Part shown: piece after piece, positions 1 through 63,713 of the stretch
Numbering within the stretch: position 1 is the first letter of the stretch
How the letters are laid out: each line of letters starts with the position of its first letter
Origin: Cirrosporium novae-zelandiae
Lineage: Eukaryota
Assembly (NCBI GenBank): GCA_026023565.1
Contig: JAPETS010000024.1
Coordinates: 372,001-436,000, forward strand
Length of the DNA stretch: 64,000 nucleotides
Direction of reading: 5' to 3'
Notes under the pieces: model-generated
What the model was told of the DNA's origin: nothing
The model's database searches: none
What the model saw: the letters and a program-made list of their open reading frames with translations, nothing else
Made by a program: the position numbers and the translations under genes

Positions 1-1310
1 TCAGGAATAATCTCAGGGTCACTCTTGCGGTTATAGTTGACGACCAGTTCTTTGGAGTTTGGAAGTAAGCGGCGCTTGTTATTACGCATTTGCAATTTGA
101 GGTTGGCGGTCATTTGAGTGTACTCTTTGCCAAACTAATAACCATAGGTCAGGATAGGACAGCATAGAAGCAAGAAGGATACTTACCTCTTCTCCAAAAG
201 CCTTTTCAGGTACAAGCTCTTCCCCATCTTCCGTTCTAAGACGCTTAGGTTTTGGCTCAGCTCCATCTTCTTCCGCCTCGCTTTCCTTCCACTTTCTAGC
301 AATAACCATAGGAACAGTCTTTGGTAGCGCATCGCTCCCAAATCCAATACGTAAATTCTGACTGCCCACGTGAATGACAATGGTCTTTGAACCTGCGGTT
401 TCAGCATTCTCCTCGGGAGAGGCATCAGTATCCATTTCCAATTCACTCTCGATAGGTTGAGCCATAGCAAGCTCACGATCACGGTCCCTGGCCTTTTTGG
501 CCATCTCGTTGCGATGCTCCTCATTTTGAAGTCTGAGGGCGAGAAGTTGATCGTCGCGTTTTAGGTACTCGCTGATATGACCGTTAGCAAGTGAAGTTGT
601 CGTTTCCAACAAGTTGCATATTTTGGATATAGTTTTGTTGGTGGTGGTAAAGCCGAATAGAAAGAGAGCCTGGAGGTGTAATAGCGTTGATATAATACAT
701 AGGGATTGTAAAGTTGATCTATAATTATGTATACAATCGACGTCTCAAAATAGAACACGAGTATACCAAAGTTCACTGTAGTTCCATTGATAATCTCAAC
801 ATGCCTCAAAGAGTCCATGTAAGCTTTCGAGGCAACTCTCCAACTGAGGACGCCGCGACAAAGGCCAAGGCGAACAAACAACAAGACGACAACTAAGCAA
901 AAAAAAAGGAACTAATGAAGGATGGCATAGAGGAAAACAGGCCAAGGCGGTGAAAACACTTAAATATCAAGCCCAATAACAAGGAGAAAGTTCACATACG
1001 TATAGTAGTTTTTCTGATTGATCATGCTAACCTGGGGCCAGGAAGTGAGCTCCATATTGTTGTCAGTCCTAGCTAGGCCTTCATGTTTATCATTAGTATT
1101 GGTATTAACATCTCAGCATCAGCATCATAATCATCAACAGTACTATAACCATAACCCATGTTGATTAGGACTTTTCTTTATACCCCTCCTTTTGTAGCTG
1201 AGAGCAAAGCTTGAGAGAGAAACTTGAAAGGGGGGGGGAGGGGAATCATAGCTGGTGTTGGACTTACCCTCCTCCCGAAGGAGTGCCTTCCCAGATTTCT
1301 TTCCTACCAT
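1..1310 (-). CDS. ARP8: Actin-related protein 8 (INO80 complex), 5' portion; continues beyond window start
   Basis: ATG at 1310. Spliced exons give MVGKKSGKALLREEG/LARTDNNMELTSWPQVSMINQKNYYT/EYLKRDDQ...KTIVIHVGSQNLRIGFGSDALPKTVPMVIAR...KRRLLPNSKELVVNYN, as in fungal Arp8. GT-AG introns at about 1080-1267, 572-999 and 137-187. Confidence 0.92.
725..860 (-). ncRNA. Candidate intronic box H/ACA snoRNA in ARP8 intron 2
   Basis: Unusually long intron containing a hairpin, AGATTA (ANANNA H box; plus 791-796), a second hairpin and ACA+3 nt (plus 728-730). No target assigned. Confidence 0.4.
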
Positions 1311-55127: not shown

Positions 55128-56105
55128 GACATTTATTTGATGGCAATTTCCAGAAACTCAGAAAGGTATATCCGGGGTGCTAAGGACATGATTATTTCCG
55201 GAACTACCAATAAATACCATGAACATTCCAGGTATAATTGGCAACGTGGTAATCATATATGAATGACGCTCCCCAGCATATAGGAATACATTATGGGGGG
55301 GTATTGATGATGATGAACAGGAACAAGAATAGGAACGGGAACAGGAACGGAAACAGGAACCATTAGGGGTAGTGATGATGAAGAATGAGGTCGACTCACT
55401 AACAAACTAAACTAAAAAAAAAAGAAGAAAATACTTAAACAATATATAGTAATCTATAACTTTTAACGATCTGATGCACCTTTTGCTATTCCCGTTCTCT
55501 GTGTATATATGCAAATAGACACAATACCCATTCTACCGTGAGAAAGAAAAAGGAAAAGAAAACCCGAATCCAAATCCACCATGCCGGGATAGAAGAACGG
55601 CTATGATGGTCATGACACAGTACCACATAGATACCCGAACTCCACTCCCGCCCGCTCGTGGGGGGGGGGGGGATTGGGGGCGTGGACAATACGGTACACA
55701 GCACAGTAAAGTTAACAATACACACAACACACACAATCCAGTCCCAGTTCTAGTCCCAGTCCCGTAGCCGTAGCCGTAGCCCGTAGCTCGTAACCGTCCG
55801 CGTGTACGCAAGTCAAAAAAACAAAATATCCCGACTCCAACATCCGCGATCCCCATAATTTTACCCCGCAATCGGGATTTGAATAGGATGGATATGGATG
55901 GGTAAACAATAACCAGAGCATTCAAGGGAATAGATAGACAAGGGATAGCATAGCATATATCAATGACATATTTCCCACAATACATACATATGTATATATA
56001 AACAAAACAAAAAAATAAATACCCAATTCCAATTCCTTTGCATATTGGATTTGGTTTCTAACATTATTTTCATATATATATATACATTTCGAACCCCCCA
56101 CCATC

Positions 56106-57848
56106 ATGTCCACCCCCACATCAAGCCCCCCCCTCCCCCAACAACCCAAATTCTCAGACCTCCCTCTGGATAAAGAAGGCGGGAAATGGAATGCCTGGGG
56201 GCTTTATGGGAAGAAAGATGAGTTGGGCATGTTGAGGAGGTTGACGGATCGGAAGGTGGTGGAGAGTGCGAGGGAGGAGATTAGGACGGGTGTTAGGTGA
56301 GAAAGATATTTTTCTTGTTTTTTTGGGGGGGGGGGGGGGTTATAAGGGAGGTTTTTTTTGATTGATTTTTTTTGGTAGGGGAGTATAGGAGTTGGAGTGA
56401 ATATGAACCACCATAGTTTTTTTTTTTGGTTATATTAAATAACCTCTTCATGATCTGTGGGGTTGGCTACGTTCATTTCATTTGATTGTTTGATTGAGCA
56501 AAGGCATATATACATGCGTGAAGAAGAAGAAGAAGAAGATGCTGGTTTATATCACATTCAACACATATCCCTCACGCATCTACTCCTCACGTCATTCATT
56601 CCGTTATCAGAACTTCAAAACATTGTTATTGTATCATATCATGGACCTAACCACCCCCCACCCCCAACAGAATTTCCCTAAATTGGCCCCTCGACGCCCA
56701 AGGCACCCGCCCCCTCTTCAGCCGCCAAGCCTTCCACAAACACGTCTACCAGAAGCCCCCGCGGATCGTGCACGACGACGTGTGGACCTTCAATACGCAA
56801 AGCAGCAGCCAGTGGGACGGGCTCCGGCATTTCGGGTATCAGAAGTTGGGGAAGTTTTATAATGGGGTTACCGTTGAGGAGATCTCCGGGGAAGGAGCGA
56901 CGAATGTTAATGGGATTCATGGTAGGTTGTTTAAATAATCAATCAGTCATACGGGAAGGAATATCCTATATTTGTTTTTGTTTTTGTTTTTGAATAGCTA
57001 GCAATATTTAAAGGCTTTTCTGCTACTACTGCAGGATTGATCCCCCCTTTTTCCGACATGCACGCACATACACACACACGCTAACATATATAGTCATGGC
57101 GGAAAAGGGAATCGTTGGCAGGGCCATCCTGCTTGATTTCCATAGTTGGCGTATTGCAAACAACATTGCCTACGAGCCTTTCAAGACGGGTTCAATTCCA
57201 CTCAAATATCTCAAGGCAACCGCCGAGGCACAAGGGACGGAGATCAAATTTGGTGATATTTGCCTTATTCGGTCAGGTGAGAAATTCTGCATTTGATGAC
57301 GCAGACACTTTTTTTTTTCATAAAGTAAAGATGTTGATAAATTGTTTACAGGTTTCACGGTTGCACATAGTAAGCTGACAGCAGATGATATCGAGGTTGA
57401 GGCGGCCAAAGTCCCACCAGAAGTTTCTGGTGTAGAACAGAGCGAAGAGATGATTCAATGGATTTGGGAGAACTTCTCAGCTATAGGAGGAGATCAACCA
57501 TCGCTTGAATGTTGGCGTAAGTTCTTCCTTCCGAAAAGCACGAGACAAATAAACTATCCATGGAAAGGCGAGGAGATTTACTGACCAATTTGTAGCAACA
57601 CAGAAGGACTGGTCTCTTCATGAGGTACTTTTGGCAGGATGGGGCTGTCCTATCGGAGAACTCTTCGATCTTGAACTGCTTGCGAGGCACTGTAAAGAAG
57701 TAAATCGATGGTCCTTCTTTCTTGCAAGTGAACCTTGCAATGTTCCGGGCGGTGTAGCTAGGTATACCAATTCCCGTTCTTGGTGAAATGTAACGTTAAC
57801 GAACTGACTGGCAACAACAGTCCTCCAAATATTATTGCAATCTTCTAG
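56106..57848 (+). CDS. Putative cyclase / kynurenine formamidase-like metal-dependent hydrolase (6 exons)
   Basis: NAWGLYGKKDELGML, VHDDVWTFNTQSSSQWDGLRHFGY, GIVGRAILLDF, GDICLIRSG, LHEVLLAGWGCPIGELFDLE, NVPGGVASPPNIIAIF*. Confidence 0.88.
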
Positions 57849-57965: not shown

Positions 57966-59654
57966 TCAAGACGTCGATTGGACTCTGCCACACATAATCA
58001 CGTCTTCTCCTATCGGCTGCCATTTAACATCGTGAAAGCGTACTGCGGGTCTTGGCCTGCCCGCTTGATCTACCCTTCGGTCAGGGCTCACAAATACACC
58101 ACCTCGTCCGAGATAGGTTGGTGCGATGGTGACAATCACAGATCCAATAAATGAAGAATACTCCTGATTGAGGAGCTCGTTAATCACATTCCCACCACCT
58201 TCAATCATTACGCTTCGTATCCCTTCGTTAGCAAGGGCAAGCAGAATAGCTTCCCATCGTAGTCGCCAGTGTAAATTATAGTCATCCAGTCGAACATAAT
58301 CTCCTCCGTACTTGCGTAGCATCGTTACCTTTTCAGGCGCTACAAATGATCCCGGAGATATAATAATCCATGGTGCTCGGCCTTTCCCTTCAGCAGCAAT
58401 CTTAAGTATTCGACTTTCCGGAGTAATATTCCACCTTCCTAAGGGATCGATTACCACTGGCCGAGGTTGTCCTTCCCAGCCGAACCCACCATACCCGGAA
58501 ACATTTTCAAGCCGACAGTTTAGCCCAGGATCATCAGCCACTGCCGTGCCAACCCCGACCAAGATGGCATCATGCTTCGATCGTAGATAGTGTGTCATTA
58601 GTTTCGATTCCTTCCCGGATAAAATAGTTTGGACTCCTGGCGCTAAGGAGAGGGAAGAGTCCATTGACATTGCATATGTCAATGTTACAAAAGGTAACCT
58701 ATTAGTATGTTCTTCAGGTTTCGGTAGATACGGATCTAAGAAATCCAGGGGAAAATCGGGCATTCGTAGGATGTCCGGTGGAAGCTCAACGCCTTGTGCA
58801 GCATCCTCCAGTTGAGCTATCGCATCATTATCCGCTGGTGTTGGCCCTTTGTAATTTGGGATCTTGACGATACGTTGGCCGTTCAAGAATTCGTATCCGT
58901 CGTGAGGTACAAGCTGGACTTCAGGATGAGCTGCGCGCCAATGTTGGGATGTATTACGGATATCCATGGTGGTCATAAACTTTCCTCCTGCATCGTCAAG
59001 CTTGGTCCATTGTTCGCGCATGACGGTATACACGGATGAAGGTAGATAGCCCTTCATCGACTCCTTCCTAGCAATACCCATGACAACGGAATTGCGCTTA
59101 ATCTTGTCAATATGGTCAAGATCATGGGAATGAGTCTCCCCGTCTCCTACGAGTCGAGTAATCAAATAATAAGGGTAAACATGATCGAATCGCTGAACCT
59201 TGATTTTCATCTGACATGTCCCACCTTCTCTTGTCTTTTTCCGTCGCAGCGGCTGTCTTTCTGAACCGTCTTTGGACGGCTCTCGATGCTTGGTAGTTGG
59301 GCGCCGCAAGCGACACATATAGTATTCTGTTGAAACCTCCGGCTGTCCCTCTGTGCTCCTGGCCGACCTCGACCTAACCCATATGTTGTCGACATAAGGC
59401 CAGTATTTTTCCCATTCTTCCCAACGGATTTCAACCTTATCTTTTATCTCAAATAATTTCTGCCGAATAGCTCTAAGGTCGGATGGATTGTTGAATAGTG
59501 GAGCATTGTCTTTTGGCAGTGTGGCTAGATCGTTTGAACCGTTTGCAGGTGGTGTGTGATCACTGCCTATTTCGCTTGGCGTGCCGTCTACATCTTCCAT
59601 TATTTGGTCGATGGAGGCAGGCTCCTCTGAGCTTGTGGTAGCTCGTCCGTCCAT
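57966..59654 (-). CDS. RIB7: Fusion protein: N-terminal WRKY-GCM1/MULE-like Zn-binding domain + RibD_C (RIB7-type riboflavin pyrimidine reductase)
   Basis: Single 562-aa ORF. From about aa 321: PFVTLTYAMSMDS...THYLRSKHDAILVGVGTAVADDPGLNCR...SVMIEGGG...TIAPTYLG. N-terminal part has YYMCRL...TCQMKIKV...HSH. The reductase call is firm; the N-terminal domain call is inferred. Confidence 0.85.
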   Translation of the reverse strand: MDGRATTSSEEPASIDQIMEDVDGTPSEIGSDHTPPANGSNDLATLPKDNAPLFNNPSDLRAIRQKLFEIKDKVEIRWEEWEKYWPYVDNIWVRSRSARSTEGQPEVSTEYYMCRLRRPTTKHREPSKDGSERQPLRRKKTREGGTCQMKIKVQRFDHVYPYYLITRLVGDGETHSHDLDHIDKIKRNSVVMGIARKESMKGYLPSSVYTVMREQWTKLDDAGGKFMTTMDIRNTSQHWRAAHPEVQLVPHDGYEFLNGQRIVKIPNYKGPTPADNDAIAQLEDAAQGVELPPDILRMPDFPLDFLDPYLPKPEEHTNRLPFVTLTYAMSMDSSLSLAPGVQTILSGKESKLMTHYLRSKHDAILVGVGTAVADDPGLNCRLENVSGYGGFGWEGQPRPVVIDPLGRWNITPESRILKIAAEGKGRAPWIIISPGSFVAPEKVTMLRKYGGDYVRLDDYNLHWRLRWEAILLALANEGIRSVMIEGGGNVINELLNQEYSSFIGSVIVTIAPTYLGRGGVFVSPDRRVDQAGRPRPAVRFHDVKWQPIGEDVIMCGRVQSTS

Positions 59655-60236: not shown

Positions 60237-63200
60237 ATGGTAAGACTCCAGGCTGAATCCGTATCAAATCAACTTGTCCGCAAAAGAAAGCATGAGAGAT
60301 CTCCTGGAAGCCCGGTAACTTCGGATGTATTGACAACTACCACAACAGTGCCAACCAAGGATCATGATGGAGGCAAAAAGCCTCGGAGGGCACCCAAAAA
60401 CGTGTCCGAGAAATCTCACCCTACATCAAAGCATAGTACTCCTTCCTCGGTCGAATCGACTATTTCATGGCCTGACCATTTCAAAGCTCTCGATAAAACT
60501 CATCGAGCCCTCAATCTAGTATATACATTCTGCTGTACACGGAAACATGTCGCTACAACCTTTGAGACCATAAAATCAGCCGTCGAAGGGAATATCAAGC
60601 GAAAGCTTTTGATTGAAGAAGTGGCAGAGATAAAATCATTGGTTCCAAACTCCATTAATTTTGTATACGTCTCGGAAGCTATGCTTCAAGTATCTGTCCT
60701 AGGGGCAGATGCTGAAAAGCCAAATGGAAGGAAGAGGCAGTCATCCTCCTTTGACCTCGATAAACCTCAAGCAGGAGAAGGCTGCAACAATGTAGAGGAT
60801 GATAAAGAAGTACTCCTATTTGAGTTTATAGACGGAGACCTAAAACGTCAAGTCGTGCATCCTAAGACAGGTGAACCCACGAAGCCTACCCGAAAGCTGA
60901 AGAACGAGGATCTGAAAATACCTGTATATAACCAAAAGCAGATGTTGAAACTTATCGAGAAAAGAAATGCCAAGTTTGCTTCTGCGGTAAACGCATTTCT
61001 CAACAAATGCACTTTGGATCATGTTGACCCTATAGAGAGATTGAAAACAGCTGTTGAAGGATTTCTCCCTATTCCTACAAAAAGCAGACAGAATACTCCA
61101 GCACCTATACAAACCATAGGTCCTCCACCAATCATACCTAAGGAGCGCAAGGAAATTTCCGAAATTCTTTCTGAAATCAAGTCAATGGAATGGTATTGTA
61201 ACCAAATTGTTCCAGATGGACATCGTGTCTTTGACCCTCAGCCATCAATATATGGTGAATTGAAGTTCCAGCTATCCCAGAATATTGTCGATGCTTTATA
61301 CAACACCCGAAGTATTACGCAGCTCTATTCTCATCAGGCCGAAGCTATCAATCACCTGTACGATGGCAGTAATGTTATTGTGGCTACATCAACGAGTTCA
61401 GGAAAGTCGCTAATATATCAGATCCCAATGTTGAATGAGCTCGAGCATGATCCTAACAGCCGTGGCATGTACATCTTCCCCACAAAAGCACTTGCCCAAG
61501 ATCAGCGCCGTAGCATGAAAGATATGCTTCGCTTTATGCGCGGACTTGAAAATACGCTTGTAGAGACGTTTGATGGAGACACCCCAATGCAAGACCGTAA
61601 CCTTATTAGGGAAGAAGCAAGAATTATCTTCACCAATCCAGATATGCTTCATATTACAATTTTACCTCACGAAGATAAATGGAGAACTTTCCTACAAAAT
61701 TTACGATTCGTTGTTGTCGATGAACTTCATGTTTATAACAGTATTTTTGGATCCCACGTTGCCATGATCATGCGACGTCTTAGAAGGATTTGTGCAGCAT
61801 TAGGAAATCGGCGCATCAGATTCATATCATGCTCAGCAACAATGGCGAATCCAGAAGAGCACATGAAGACTATTTTTGGCATCGAAGATGTTCGTTTAGT
61901 TGATTTCGACGGTTCTCCGTCGGGTAGGAAGGAGTTTATTTGCTGGAATACGCCGTTTAAAGATCCAAGTGATCCCTCATCCGGCAGAGGAGATGCCATG
62001 GCAGAGGCTGCCAGACTGTTCTGTCAACTGATTCTACGTGGCGTGAGGGTCATAGCATTCTGCAGAGTCAGAAAACAGTGTGAACTTCTAATTGGTGCCG
62101 TGAAAAATGAACTCGTGTGTTTAGGGCGTCCAGAGGTAATGAGCAGAGTTATGGGTTATAGAGGTGGTTATAGCGCACAAGACCGACGGAATATTGAAAA
62201 GGAGATGTTCGAAGAGAAGCTCGTAGGCATCGTCGCTACAAGTGCTCTAGAGTTGGGCGTTGATATTGGTTCTCTTGACGCTGTCATTACGTGCGGTTTT
62301 CCTTACAGTATCGCCAACTTGCGTCAGCAAAGTGGACGTGCTGGACGAAGAAATAAGGATTCCTTATCAGTTCTAGTTGGTGATTCGTTCCCTACAGATC
62401 AATATTATATGAATAATCCCGACGAAATCTTCACCCAACCAAACTGCGAACTTCAGGTCGATTTGGAGAATATTATGGTACTTGAGGGGCATGTTCAGTG
62501 CGCTGCATTTGAAATGCCAATCAAGCCAGATGAGGACGAGGCATATTTTGGAAGGCAATTGCCAAAGGTAGCGGAGGAGCGACTGACTAAAGACCCACTT
62601 GGGTTTTATCACTGCAACGAGCGTTTCCGACCATTCCCCTCTAGATGTGTTTCCATTCGCGACACTGAAGATGGACATTTCGCAGTTGTTGATATTACGA
62701 ATGGACGGAACATTGTTCTGGAAGAAGTAGAACCGTCACGCTCATTTTTCACAATATACGAAGGCGGTATATTTCTTCACCAGGGGAATACCTATCTCGT
62801 AAAGGAGCTTAATCTAGATACTAAGATTGCCAAGGTTGAGCTTGTTAAGGTTGACTGGACAACTCAACAGCGGGATTTCACAGATGTTGATCCCATTGGA
62901 ACAGAAGCAATACGACGCATACCAAAGACTCTGTCAAGGGCTTTCTTCGGGGCTATCAGAATCCGAATGGTGGTTTTCGGCTTCTTCAAGATGGACAAGA
63001 AGCGTCGAATTCTTGATGCTGTTGAAGTGGACAACCCACCAATAGAGATATACAGTAAAGGAATGTGGCTGGATGTTCCGAAATCAGCGCTTGATATTTT
63101 AAATTCGAGACAACTCAACATGGCTGCTGCAATTCATGCTGCTGAGCATGCGGTACTGAGCCTAATGCCAAACTTTGTGATTTCGATGCCTGGTGACGTC

Positions 63201-63713
63201 AGAACCGAGTGCAAGAATCCGAAGAAAGAATTTGCGAAAAGAGAAACGTCTCGAAAACGACCAGCTCGTTTGACTTTTTACGATGCCAAAGGGGGCCCAA
63301 GTGGTGCCGGAATAGCACAGAAGGCCTTTGAATTCGTAGATCTCCTTCTGAACCAAGCGGTAGAACGAGTAATTGGATGTCACTGTCAGGGAGGTTGTAT
63401 TGAATGTGTCTGCTCTGAAAGATGTAATGAGGCAAATGCAGTATTAAGCAAAGCAGGTGCAGAGGTGATATTGAAAAGCTTATTGAACATTGAGATCGAC
63501 ATCGAGTCGTTGCCCATGGGACCAGAAGAATCTGCACCAGCTGGGATCGAGACTATTGTTGCAGCCACGGAAATAGCCCCAGCAATAGGATTGGTAGTTC
63601 CAATATTTGACAGTGGCAGGAATTCGAGCGTTCCGCAGAAGCATTCTGTTGGTCAAGCAGACGCAGGAGACAATGAAGTGGACATCAAGATAGATAGAAG
63701 TGAACTAACTTAG
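60237..63713 (+). CDS. HRQ1: RecQ4-like DEAH helicase Hrq1 with C-terminal Cys4 (DUF1998) domain
   Basis: LYSHQAEAI, TSTSSGKS, PTKALAQDQ, VVVDELH, SCSAT, YRGGY, ATSALELGVDIG, QQSGRAGRR, AIHAAEHA, CHCQGGCIEC. Intronless. Confidence 0.96.
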   Translation: MVRLQAESVSNQLVRKRKHERSPGSPVTSDVLTTTTTVPTKDHDGGKKPRRAPKNVSEKSHPTSKHSTPSSVESTISWPDHFKALDKTHRALNLVYTFCCTRKHVATTFETIKSAVEGNIKRKLLIEEVAEIKSLVPNSINFVYVSEAMLQVSVLGADAEKPNGRKRQSSSFDLDKPQAGEGCNNVEDDKEVLLFEFIDGDLKRQVVHPKTGEPTKPTRKLKNEDLKIPVYNQKQMLKLIEKRNAKFASAVNAFLNKCTLDHVDPIERLKTAVEGFLPIPTKSRQNTPAPIQTIGPPPIIPKERKEISEILSEIKSMEWYCNQIVPDGHRVFDPQPSIYGELKFQLSQNIVDALYNTRSITQLYSHQAEAINHLYDGSNVIVATSTSSGKSLIYQIPMLNELEHDPNSRGMYIFPTKALAQDQRRSMKDMLRFMRGLENTLVETFDGDTPMQDRNLIREEARIIFTNPDMLHITILPHEDKWRTFLQNLRFVVVDELHVYNSIFGSHVAMIMRRLRRICAALGNRRIRFISCSATMANPEEHMKTIFGIEDVRLVDFDGSPSGRKEFICWNTPFKDPSDPSSGRGDAMAEAARLFCQLILRGVRVIAFCRVRKQCELLIGAVKNELVCLGRPEVMSRVMGYRGGYSAQDRRNIEKEMFEEKLVGIVATSALELGVDIGSLDAVITCGFPYSIANLRQQSGRAGRRNKDSLSVLVGDSFPTDQYYMNNPDEIFTQPNCELQVDLENIMVLEGHVQCAAFEMPIKPDEDEAYFGRQLPKVAEERLTKDPLGFYHCNERFRPFPSRCVSIRDTEDGHFAVVDITNGRNIVLEEVEPSRSFFTIYEGGIFLHQGNTYLVKELNLDTKIAKVELVKVDWTTQQRDFTDVDPIGTEAIRRIPKTLSRAFFGAIRIRMVVFGFFKMDKKRRILDAVEVDNPPIEIYSKGMWLDVPKSALDILNSRQLNMAAAIHAAEHAVLSLMPNFVISMPGDVRTECKNPKKEFAKRETSRKRPARLTFYDAKGGPSGAGIAQKAFEFVDLLLNQAVERVIGCHCQGGCIECVCSERCNEANAVLSKAGAEVILKSLLNIEIDIESLPMGPEESAPAGIETIVAATEIAPAIGLVVPIFDSGRNSSVPQKHSVGQADAGDNEVDIKIDRSELT

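Follow-up and report, generated by a model that had tools for sequence, protein, structure and literature searches.

The locus occupies the minus strand of the window (the whole 64-kb stretch of DNA that was analysed) and encodes a protein of 562 amino acid residues in one uninterrupted, intronless open reading frame (ORF). The frame closes with a TGA codon at 57966-57968, and a further in-frame stop is found 10 codons upstream of M1, whose start context shows A at -3 and G at +4. An earlier reading of the letters alone (the sequence-only reading) had described the same single ORF, with a C114-x32-C147-x27-H175-x-H177 arrangement in its N-terminal half; both the ORF and the spacing were recovered exactly, together with the motif strings YYMCRLRRPT, RRKKTREGGTCQMKIKV and ETHSH. 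The parts of the protein and their positions are listed in Table 1.

Table 1 Parts of the fused protein and their positions in the window.
Feature	Position	Strand	Basis
Whole ORF, 562 residues and TGA, intron unnecessary	57966..59654	-	Colinear with 119 fused orthologues in alignment
Residues 1-59, acidic disordered N-terminal tail	59478..59654	-	pI 4.05; pLDDT <50 for residues 1-44
Residues 60-178, N-terminal helices and predicted four-stranded WRKY-GCM1-type zinc sheet	59121..59477	-	AlphaFold2 models; fold matches WRKY, Aft2 and GCM
C114, predicted zinc ligand 1, end of strand 2	59313..59315	-	119/119 orthologues
C147, predicted zinc ligand 2, directly before strand 3	59214..59216	-	118/119 orthologues; the remaining row is a gap
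H175-S-H177, predicted zinc ligands 3 and 4, after strand 4	59124..59132	-	119/119 orthologues each
Residues 136-143, LRRKKTRE, basic cluster within the insert	59226..59249	-	Basic cluster in 118/119 orthologues
Residues 179-255, conserved helical bundle and small hairpin	58890..59120	-	62.2% mean pairwise identity
Residues 256-299, variable linker	58758..58889	-	36.3% identity, many indels; pLDDT 56-61 around residues 270-290
Residues 300-562, Rib7 domain, catalytic residues intact	57969..58757	-	RibD_C match; alignments to solved structures

The four putative ligands, on whose conservation the sequence-only reading depended, are kept in 118-119 of the 119 fused orthologues, and when the wider family is aligned (111 sequences) the same four are found in 90% or more of the rows; conservation at both levels is beyond chance. 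Mean pairwise identity among the orthologues is 61.5% for the N-terminal module and 68.0% for the reductase, but falls to 36.3% in the linker and 23.7% in the tail; the module is thus conserved nearly as strongly as the enzyme. M298, at the junction of the two halves, is a Met in the window protein alone (1/119; the residue is F in 98 and Y in 16), and the next conserved Met, M331, sits within the Rib7 core. The ORF is therefore read as one protein, not two.

The tail carries a net negative charge in 118/119 orthologues (median -10), from which we infer a resemblance to an activation domain. The 32-residue insert between C114 and C147 is basic, with R137, K139 and R142 each conserved in at least 90% of the fused orthologues, and its LRRKKTRE cluster may be similar to a nuclear localisation signal (NLS) or may contact the DNA backbone. 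The pI is 9.8 for residues 88-178 and 9.5 for the N-terminal module. The full-length AlphaFold2 (AF2) model has a pTM of 0.79, which at most hints that the domains are fixed relative to one another. Complex predictions in which the N-terminal module (residues 55-270) was paired with the reductase (residues 296-562) gave scores of 0.62, 0.21 and 0.31, with a median of 0.31 where the mark is 0.34, and the controls gave 0.00, 0.00 and 0.08.

The Rib7 reductase domain

The C-terminal domain matches Pfam RibD_C over residues 321-553 (E 1.2e-29; 104 bits, cut-off 24.1), while the solved structures of fungal Rib7 align to residues 304-557 (9l1f, E 1.2e-44; 4ha7, E 7.2e-40). By homology it is a 2,5-diamino-6-ribosylamino-4(3H)-pyrimidinone 5'-phosphate reductase. 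In the alignment to the Saccharomyces cerevisiae enzyme (ScRIB7), G367-V-G369-T370, D374, E485-G486-G487 and T326 correspond to G76-x-G78, T79, D83, E180-G181-G182 and T35, respectively. ScRIB7 is described as a homodimer for which the NADPH pyrophosphate motif G-x-G...G-G, Thr79, Asp83 and Glu180 are required, and in which Thr35, a small hydroxyl residue replacing the bacterial Lys, sets specificity for DAROPP (PMC3631187). Among the fused orthologues G367, T370, D374, E485, G486 and G487 are invariant (119/119), G369 is present in 112/119, and the position of T326 is occupied by T in 55 orthologues, by S in 63 and by A in one. The claim of a C-terminal RibD_C reductase with intact motifs is thus upheld, both by the Pfam score and by the alignment of the catalytic residues to ScRIB7. 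Judged by these alignments, the domain has all the residues on which NADPH binding and catalysis are known to depend, and it probably still catalyses the Rib7 reaction, which would make the protein a bifunctional enzyme-regulator.

Predicted fold and transposase ancestry of the N-terminal module

The AF2 model of residues 60-276 (pLDDT 93.1, pTM 0.83) contains strands at residues 92-99, 108-114, 150-157 and 161-167, preceded by a helix at residues 78-88, and the four-stranded antiparallel sheet that forms the core of the WRKY-GCM1 fold is present in this predicted structure. The top structural match was the WRKY domain of RRS1-R (rmsd 2.3 Å, 73/73 residues aligned) with a Z of 7.4, a maximum that lies below 8, the tool's mark for a clearly meaningful match. 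Of the best 12 matches, 11 were WRKY domains or Aft2 (Z 7.4 to 4.7), with unrelated folds appearing from Z 4.6. When 48,161 chains were searched with VIA-align, WRKY33 (Z 5.6), WRKY1 (5.3), WRKY4 (4.7), Aft2 (4.7) and GCM (4.2) were all among the top 22. Foldseek against the PDB with the module model placed an Aft2-DNA structure (4lmg) at rank 1 with an E of 0.07, and gave no match at E<=1e-3.

At the sequence level, no WRKY, Aft2 or GCM chain was found among the PDB sequences at E<=10 with the HMMER profile of the family; weak bromodomain matches to the same profile (E ~0.5) were read as chance. Residues 60-255 have no Pfam match, and the Pfam models for WRKY, FAR1, AFT, GCM and FLYWCH did not match the window protein or 22 fused orthologues at E<=10, nor did any other DNA-binding family match those 22. 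Sub-threshold matches are found in six distinct relatives, to AFT in four (best E 0.043) and to FAR1 in three (best E 0.019), and these fall on the zinc sheet and reach the HxH end of the profiles. The ESM Atlas neighbours of the module, which serve as a lead only, include MULE, FAR1, AFT and GCM clusters.

[quoted passage not shown] A strand-4 Trp, which that source gives as conserved 'typically', a typical and not a defining feature of the family, is absent from the module (YYLITRL in the window protein, S-T-V-T-I in the consensus). The WRKY-GCM1/FAR1 fold that had been proposed from the ligand pattern agrees with the AF2 model, which aligns best to WRKY domains and Aft2. On this model, the module appears to combine a C-C-H-x-H zinc sheet of WRKY-GCM1 type, akin to the insert-containing (Aft/FAR1-like) forms, with a helical bundle on its C-terminal side. 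As no curated Pfam model matches it, it is best regarded as a branch of the WRKY-GCM1 superfamily that such models do not cover. The helical part (residues 179-255) aligned in VIA-align to the DNA-binding domains of TnsB, SETMAR, Mos1, Tc3, IstA and Mu with Z of 4.0-5.6, values under the tool's bar for helical folds, and a kinship with transposase helix-turn-helix domains is taken as a lead only. WRKY-type domains are also able to act in protein interaction; the RRS1-R WRKY chain was solved with an effector (title of 5w3x).

The nearest parallels in yeasts are Aft1/Aft2 (Rcs1) and Rbf1 of the Saccharomycotina. Aft2 (4lmg, Z 4.7) aligns to the module over 68-69 residues with 19% identity; unlike the window protein, however, these regulators have no enzyme domain, and the Pfam AFT similarity is sub-threshold and confined to relatives of the window protein.

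A phmmer search with residues 60-276 against 1.84 billion representative sequences (50% clustering) gave 339 matches at E<=1e-3, 94 of them at E<=1e-10. Among the best 150 of the 339, 13 have RibD_C, at least 14 have the RNaseH-like domains of MULE or ZSWIM1-3 proteins after the module, and 114 have no Pfam match; two further relatives of the MULE/ZSWIM type were found at E ~2e-4. The relatives with MULE domains match the module at E 1e-8 to 1e-20 (for example, 6.1e-20 for P0144 and 1.0e-10 for P0213). The fungal MULE transposases RPA83468.1 (P0213, Ascobolus immersus) and RHZ59681.1 (P0242, Diversispora epigaea) have a homologous module with the same four ligands, the homology spanning about query residues 3-190 of 217 (residues 62-249 of the window protein). 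In the transposases the module is followed by PF10551/PF21056, whereas the window protein has Rib7 in that place.

The window protein itself has no MULE, DDE (PF10551/PF21056) or SWIM Pfam domain. Convincing terminal inverted repeats are absent (at best, a flanking pair of 19 nt with 84% complementarity), and no second copy of the module is found in the 64-kb window. These results match the absence of a DDE domain and terminal repeats that had been noted from the letters alone, and the derivation from a MULE, at first a matter of motif resemblance, now has direct homology to the N-terminal modules of MULE transposases behind it. By sequence homology, the module appears to be the former N-terminal part of a Mutator-like (MULE) transposase of which the catalytic core, SWIM finger and terminal repeats are gone. 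Taken as a whole, the reading of architecture and origin is very probably correct.

The plant proteins FHY3 and FAR1 have an N-terminal C..C..HxH zinc DNA-binding domain and retain the transposase core and SWIM finger. They are regulators derived from MULE transposases and in that origin resemble the window protein, a likeness to which the sub-threshold FAR1 matches in three module relatives add, but the window protein is without the transposase core, the SWIM finger and the strand-4 Trp.

Distribution and origin of the fusion

The same architecture was found in 137 database proteins from many genera of the Eurotiomycetes and Lecanoromycetes, which answers the search of the Pezizomycotina suggested in the sequence-only reading; the orthologues stand in the databases under the name Rib7 reductase. 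All of the fused modules (34/34) form one clade in the module tree (SH-aLRT 98). In the reductase tree, which is unrooted, 41 of the 42 fused domains lie on one side of a branch with support of 98, in an order that matches the species tree; the fused lineage may represent either the original Rib7 orthologue or an old paralogue. On these phylogenies the fusion arose once, and one polypeptide has been conserved since about the common ancestor of the Eurotiomycetes and Lecanoromycetes. Six 'short' Rib7 rows inside the fused clade come from contigs of 1.0-3.7 kb and are most likely truncated gene models. The same is most likely true of P0027 (364 residues, without RibD_C), considered and rejected as a natural stand-alone form of the module, which lies on a 2.2-kb contig beside a Penicillium fused protein.

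Stand-alone Rib7 proteins (S. cerevisiae RIB7, 4ha7; the short forms of Aspergillus and Penicillium, such as P0310) contain the same reductase end to end and share the catalytic and NADPH-binding residues with the window protein. They differ in being ~245-282 residues long, in having no N-terminal module and in lying on the opposite side of the SH-aLRT 98 branch. Similarity to yeast Rib7 (4ha7) is equal for the fused and short forms (142 vs 149 bits). At least 12 species of Aspergillus and Penicillium carry both the fused and a separate short Rib7, and since the short form is also kept in these species, the housekeeping role need not fall to the fused gene. For A. fumigatus a supplementary table gives two rib7 homologues, of which the one with 622 residues is counted here among the fused proteins (Supplementary Table 3, PMC6068542). 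A literature search found no paper describing the fusion, and AFUA_4G04730 / Afu4g04730 in the main text of no paper. No short Rib7 was seen for the Onygenales, Chaetothyriales or Lecanoromycetes among the best 120 of 1,238 short matches, and the fused protein may be the sole Rib7 in these groups and in the window's own genome.

A possible enzyme-linked regulator

The regulation of riboflavin synthesis in filamentous fungi is poorly understood, and we know of no dedicated fungal riboflavin regulator comparable to the bacterial FMN riboswitch. The fused gene is a concrete candidate for such a regulator and occurs in tractable Aspergillus species. In the proposed mechanism, the protein would act as a sequence-specific DNA-binding regulator in which the zinc module would read DNA, the basic insert would aid nuclear import or contact with the backbone, and the acidic tail would draw in the transcription machinery. 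The Rib7 domain would dimerise and so join two DNA-binding modules. Since it would also bind NADPH and the pyrimidine intermediate, the occupancy or activity of promoters could follow flavin-precursor or redox status. We infer DNA binding, zinc binding, nuclear location and regulation alike, and the probability of this mechanism is put at, or a little below, an even one. A fusion of enzyme and regulator, in the broader sense, is the best explanation overall, and its chances are judged to be balanced.

A different account, with a substantial minority probability, is that the protein is the plain Rib7 of these fungi, and that the module does a non-transcriptional job; it might, for example, serve in oligomerisation or localisation, tether the protein to chromatin or RNA, or bind another protein of the riboflavin pathway. 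The invariant catalytic and NADPH-binding residues are no less in keeping with a plain enzyme than with a sensor, and the fused reductase lineage tracks the species tree, as expected of an orthologue passed on vertically. The annotation of the orthologues as Rib7 reductase, the equal closeness of fused and short forms to the yeast enzyme, and the short Rib7 unseen for three groups among the best 120 of 1,238 short matches point the same way. By contrast, the module is composed like a nucleic-acid-binding protein (pI 9.5) and comes from the DNA-binding region of a transposase, while a tail that stays acidic in 118/119 orthologues despite the drift of its sequence is awkward for a cytosolic enzyme. 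Pure redundancy is moreover unlikely, given that the Eurotiales retain a second Rib7, the short one.

That second gene also bears on the proposal that the fused protein is a pseudo-enzyme sensor, in which the Rib7 domain would serve for ligand binding and dimerisation only and the short Rib7 would carry out biosynthesis. As this proposal would have it, 12 named species of the Eurotiales, and A. fumigatus as well, carry fused and short forms side by side, and the same logic has been put forward for an isochorismatase fusion (Babu et al., PMC1702500). The reductase is, however, the most conserved part of the protein (68.0%), with D374 and E485 invariant in 119/119 orthologues and the NADPH motif kept (G369 in 112/119). 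Enzyme-derived sensors usually lose their catalytic residues, so that the invariance of these residues counts against the proposal, which is considered improbable. An artefact, either an in-frame transposon remnant with an internal start or a decaying MULE insertion, would account for the Met of the window protein at the point where Rib7 homology begins, but it is highly improbable given that M298 is not shared by the orthologues, that 137 database proteins have the same colinear architecture, that terminal repeats and a second module copy are lacking in the window, that M1 lies in the context given above, and that invariant ligands and 61.5% identity in the module, against 36.3% in the linker, are incompatible with decay.

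The fused protein already has database entries, as Rib7, and an analogous enzyme fusion was predicted in 2006, namely an isochorismatase fused to a WRKY-GCM1 domain in filamentous fungi, with a predicted role as a sensor (PMC1702500). The two are alike in that an enzyme of small-molecule metabolism carries a WRKY-GCM1 module of the insert-containing kind, derived from a MULE and lacking the transposase core, and the isochorismatase fusion P0203 (Pseudogymnoascus) is a sequence relative of the window's module. They differ in the partner, isochorismatase in one and Rib7 in the other, and since they fall in different clades of the module tree, they arose separately. The words riboflavin, RibD and reductase have 0 occurrences in the text of the 2006 paper, whose supplementary lists may include the protein (PMC1702500). 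No experimental test of either fusion was found in the literature search.

Besides Rib7 and isochorismatase, the enzyme partners of the module include GFA, GST, GNAT and aminotransferase domains, to which the ESM Atlas neighbours add aldehyde dehydrogenase. The Rib7 fusion could belong to a class of fungal 'one-component' regulators that has gone unrecognised, as its oldest and most conserved member; in this class a MULE-derived WRKY-type DNA-binding module would have been plugged repeatedly onto small-molecule enzymes. In the Rib7 case an enzyme still active in biosynthesis would report the occupancy of NADPH or flavin-precursor sites directly to promoters (e.g. of riboflavin, iron or redox genes), and filamentous fungi would have a protein-based counterpart of the bacterial FMN riboswitch. 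This wider proposal is speculative and, at present, unlikely. With its single origin and strong constraint, the Rib7 fusion offers a clean case of transposase domestication through joining to an enzyme. A large fungal branch of the WRKY-GCM1 superfamily escapes the current domain libraries (339 representatives, with 114 of the best 150 lacking a Pfam match), so that DNA-binding modules may go unnoticed in proteins annotated simply as enzymes.

The Rib7 fusion gene and its conservation

The Rib7 fusion (562 residues, to which residue numbers refer) comprises a tail (aa 1-59), an N-module (aa 60-255), a linker (aa 256-299) and a Rib7 reductase (aa 300-562). Translation and Pfam confirmed the observation of the sequence-only reading, an uninterrupted ORF with a RibD_C C-terminal half and a C/C/HxH N-terminal half; the translated ORF reproduces exactly the spacing claimed for the motif (C114-x32-C147-x27-H175-x-H177) and the peptide strings quoted. 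An in-frame stop lies 10 codons 5' of M1, where position -3 is A and position +4 is G. RibD_C is the sole Pfam match (aa 321-553, E 1.2e-29, 104 bits, gathering score 24.1) and aa 1-300 match no Pfam family. The protein sits in databases under the name Rib7, with its N-terminal half unannotated.

Positions of the genes, neighbouring features (window nucleotides) and predicted elements of the module (aa, full-length numbering)
Feature	Position	Strand	Description
Rib7 fusion ORF	57966..59654	-	562 codons + TGA stop
Hrq1-type RecQ-family helicase gene	60237-63713	+	1158-aa ORF, Pfam domains
Short ORF	57096-57296	+	66 aa
Intergenic region	55500-56700		AT-rich, homopolymer runs and imperfect inverted repeats
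G13 homopolymer	55660-55679
C-rich 21-mers	56123-56143, 56649-56669
Imperfect inverted repeats	55990-56087		AT-rich
Module strands 1-4	aa 92-99, 108-114, 150-157, 161-167		preceded by two short helices; AlphaFold2
Module insert			32 residues between strands 2 and 3, lower confidence; AlphaFold2
Module helical bundle	aa 179-242		followed by a small hairpin; AlphaFold2

A search with aa 40-300, bearing on whether the same architecture occurs in other Pezizomycotina, returned 137 proteins at E<=1e-3 and found the fusion in many genera. Nearly all of the 120 matches listed are of 525-690 aa with RibD_C. The genera represented are Aspergillus, Penicillium, Penicilliopsis, Elaphomyces, Paracoccidioides, Polytolypa and Lecanora, and Lithohypha guttulata (Chaetothyriales) has a more distantly related fused form. 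Among 119 fused orthologues (module and RibD_C in one protein), the reductase has the highest mean pairwise identity (68.0%), followed by the N-module (61.5%), the linker (36.3%) and the tail (23.7%). The candidate ligands C114, H175 and H177 are present in all 119 and C147 in 118, the remaining row being a gap, so the C/C/H/H conservation that the sequence-only reading called for is borne out. The Rib7 fusion is an old, constrained gene of the Eurotiomycetes and Lecanoromycetes and is not unique to the Cirrosporium genome. Because a possible internal start, M298, is found only in the window protein (elsewhere Phe in 98, Tyr in 16, Leu in 2 and Ile in 1 of the 119) and M331, the next Met to be conserved, falls within the Rib7 core, the orthologues have no conserved route by which this gene could yield a complete reductase on its own.

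Solved fungal Rib7 structures align over aa 304-557 (9l1f, E 1.2e-44; 4ha7, E 7.2e-40). According to Lv et al. (2013, PMC3631187), yeast RIB7 is a homodimer in which G76-x-G78...G181-G182 line the NADPH pyrophosphate site, T79, D83, E180 and G182 are required for activity and T35 sets the preference for DAROPP. Alignment to chain 4ha7_A (chain index = residue number + 5) maps these key residues to G367, G369, T370, D374, E485, G486, G487 and T326. G369 is kept in 112 of the 119 fused orthologues and G367, T370, D374, E485, G486 and G487 in every one, while position 326 carries Thr in 55, Ser in 63 and Ala in 1. The reductase half looks fully competent because these catalytic and NADPH-binding residues are kept in 112-119 of the orthologues. 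Fused and short proteins (stand-alone Rib7 without the module) are equally similar to yeast Rib7 4ha7 (142 versus 149 bits).

Homology and predicted fold of the N-module

The sequence-only reading had proposed a domesticated MULE (Mutator-like transposase element) module of WRKY-GCM1 type, lacking the transposase core and joined to Rib7; both homology searches and structural matches support this. A phmmer search of 1.84 billion representative proteins with aa 60-276 gave 339 matches at E<=1e-3 (94 at E<=1e-10, 12 at E<=1e-30), of 92-1063 aa and with the module mostly N-terminal. In a Pfam scan of the best 150 of the 339 (65 at E<=1e-3, 85 at E<=1e-4), 13 carry RibD_C and 14 carry MULE (PF10551) and/or ZSWIM1-3 RNaseH-like (PF21056) domains directly after the module, named examples being proteins of Ascobolus immersus and Diversispora epigaea; P0221 and P0257 (P-numbers label related proteins from the searches) are two further carriers of MULE/ZSWIM-type transposase domains at E ~2e-4. 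The four candidate ligands are >=90% conserved across the wider module family (111-sequence alignment). The shared ligands and the transposase domains directly after the module in at least 14 relatives show, on sequence comparison, that the module and the N-terminal region of fungal Mutator-like transposases are homologous. The window protein has no transposase domain by Pfam, no terminal repeats were found flanking its gene and no second copy of the module lies within the 64-kb window.

Six module relatives have sub-threshold Pfam matches to AFT (P0133, P0146, P0151, P0178; best E 0.043) or FAR1 (P0163, P0178, P0238; best E 0.019), all of which cover the zinc sheet and extend to the end of the profile where the HxH lies. 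Leads from the ESM Atlas, among the neighbours of aa 60-255, are MULE/ZSWIM clusters (TM 0.79 by query), a cluster labelled 'FAR1 domain-containing' (TM 0.65) and clusters in which a minority of members have AFT or GCM.

AlphaFold2, using the 111-sequence alignment, modelled aa 60-276 with a pLDDT of 93.1 and a pTM of 0.83. A Foldseek search of the PDB with this model gave no match at E<=1e-3; rank 1 was DNA-bound Aft2 (4lmg, E 0.07), while the matches to WRKY18 and to the WRKY domain of RRS1 were given probabilities of 0.80-0.82. As the sequence-only reading had anticipated of the fold, the best structural matches are WRKY domains and Aft2, all below the VIA-align Z of 8 that is clearly meaningful by the tool's standard. 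Against 48,161 representative chains, the first 22 rows include WRKY33 (Z 5.6, 75 aligned of 79, rmsd 3.4), WRKY1 (Z 5.3), WRKY4 (Z 4.7), another WRKY (Z 4.2), Aft2 (Z 4.7, 68 aligned, 19% identity) and GCM (Z 4.2). When Foldseek's top 998 chains were re-scored, WRKY or Aft2 filled 11 of the first 12 rows, led by the RRS1-R WRKY domain (Z 7.4, rmsd 2.3 Å, 73/73 residues aligned, 18% identity), with unrelated folds from Z 4.6 downward. These matches carry weight because they are specific and complete and agree with the sequence-level link to MULEs. The helical part may resemble transposase helix-turn-helix DNA-binding domains (TnsB Z 5.6, SETMAR 5.2, Mos1 4.9, Tc3 4.4, IstA and Mu ~4), scores that are weak for helical folds. 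In WRKY domains the DNA-reading strand carries WRKYGQK; in the model, the most conserved surface motif (D89-N90-x-W92-V93-x-Q95, on the first strand of the sheet) would occupy the position of that strand.

In the family described by Babu et al. (2006, PMC1702500), an insert separates the Cys ligands, an N-terminal helix is present and strand 4 usually has a Trp. The window module shares the insert, helix and ligands but lacks the strand-4 Trp (YYLITRL). The same authors describe fungal transcription factors (Rcs1/Aft2, Rbf1) and stand-alone copies as having been derived repeatedly, and report an isochorismatase fusion in several filamentous fungi, with the enzyme suggested as a sensor. The union of a MULE-derived WRKY-type domain with an enzyme is therefore of a kind already predicted in 2006, for isochorismatase, to which the Rib7 partner adds; riboflavin, RibD and reductase have 0 occurrences in the text of that paper, and none of the papers listed in literature searches connects WRKY-type domains with riboflavin enzymes in fungi.

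Origin of the fusion and the second Rib7

For the module tree (IQ-TREE quick, LG+G4), 172 candidates were reduced to 151 rows, the 21 left out having <140 profile positions covered or an envelope >330 aa. All 34 RibD_C-fused rows and P0027, a probable fragment, form one clade (SH-aLRT 98); the MULE-bearing rows are scattered (12 label changes for 14 rows). The isochorismatase, GFA, GNAT and aminotransferase fusions fall outside this clade. By this tree the Rib7 fusion had a single origin, independent of the other enzyme fusions.

Elsewhere in the fungi, small-molecule enzymes of at least five further, unrelated kinds carry this MULE-derived module, and they fall into separate clades of its tree. 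Among the best 150 of the 339 relatives these comprise GFA in three (P0140, P0204, P0210) and one each of isochorismatase (P0203, Pseudogymnoascus), GST (P0222, Morchella), class-III aminotransferase (P0251) and GNAT (P0253); two have weak C2H2 matches and 114 match no Pfam family. Some of these fusions may be gene-model mergers. ESM Atlas leads include sizeable GST clusters, of 88 and 59 members, as well as clusters with aldehyde dehydrogenase. P0171, P0173, P0192, P0218, P0219 and P0246 (762-1063 aa) group tightly with P0250 (SH-aLRT 100); in these long proteins the module is placed mid-protein (~residues 330-700) and split into two HMM pieces, and the remainder has no Pfam domain.

The unrooted reductase-domain tree (42 fused and 120 short proteins, all kept) is divided by a branch of support 98. 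On one side are 41 fused proteins and six 'short' rows, probably fragments, on contigs of 1.0-3.7 kb; on the other are 114 short rows and one fused row, P0138. The fused group branches in the order Lecanoromycetes, Chaetothyriales, Onygenales, Eurotiales, and the short group contains Dothideomycetes, Leotiomycetes, Sordariomycetes and Eurotiales. As the tree is unrooted, two readings stand: the fused lineage may be the vertically inherited Rib7 of Eurotiomycetes and Lecanoromycetes, the Eurotiales having gained a second, short copy, or the two forms may be old paralogues.

P0138 (601 aa) has its reductase on a very long branch (1.1) and in an unreliable position, and its N-module groups with Chaetothyriales-like fused proteins (support 99); the explanation is either rapid evolution of the reductase domain or a flawed gene model. 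Eurotiales short Rib7 proteins group with Leotiomycete and Sordariomycete sequences, not beside the fused Eurotiomycete lineage, and Sordariomycete rows (Neonectria, Cytospora) nest beside Penicillium short copies. Horizontal acquisition, old paralogy or a quick-tree artefact could account for this placement.

Among the matches listed, at least 12 named species have both forms: Aspergillus coremiiformis, A. wentii, A. avenaceus, A. hancockii, A. crustosus and A. tanneri, and Penicillium sp. DV-2018c, P. canariense, P. coprophilum, P. canescens, P. paradoxum and P. angulare. For A. fumigatus, Dietl et al. (2018, PMC6068542) list two rib7 homologues in their Supplementary Table 3, AFUA_3G00360 and AFUA_4G04730 (622 aa for the second); no paper was found with AFUA_4G04730 in its text.

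Possible role and gene surroundings

The calculated pI is 9.51 for the module, 9.79 for the zinc sheet and 6.59 for the reductase, and the insert has a basic cluster in 118 of 119 orthologues (LRRKKTRE in the window protein). The tail has no conserved sequence, yet its net charge is negative in 118 of the 119 (median -10; median length 79 residues), and it is predicted to be disordered (pLDDT <50 for aa 1-44). In many eukaryotic transcription factors a disordered acidic region is combined with a basic DNA-binding domain of the zinc type and a dimeric domain that binds a ligand, a layout that the Rib7 fusion would share. We give about an even chance to a regulator that binds DNA and whose Rib7 domain is active or senses a ligand. 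A Rib7 enzyme whose appendage has a non-transcriptional role is a less likely alternative.

The Rib7 fusion and helicase genes are divergent and share an upstream intergenic region of 582 bp; no functional link between them was seen. The helicase ORF matches DEAD (E 4.1e-34), WHD_HRQ1 (1.3e-30) and the MrfA Zn-binding domain (MZB, 2.6e-18), and also has Helicase_C and, at its N-terminus, a CDT1-like stretch. The 66-aa ORF, which lies immediately downstream of the Rib7 fusion gene, has a sub-threshold match to Pfam 'Putative cyclase' (E 4.8e-4, 20.8 bits, cut-off 23.1) and is probably one exon of an intron-containing cyclase/kynurenine-formamidase-like gene.
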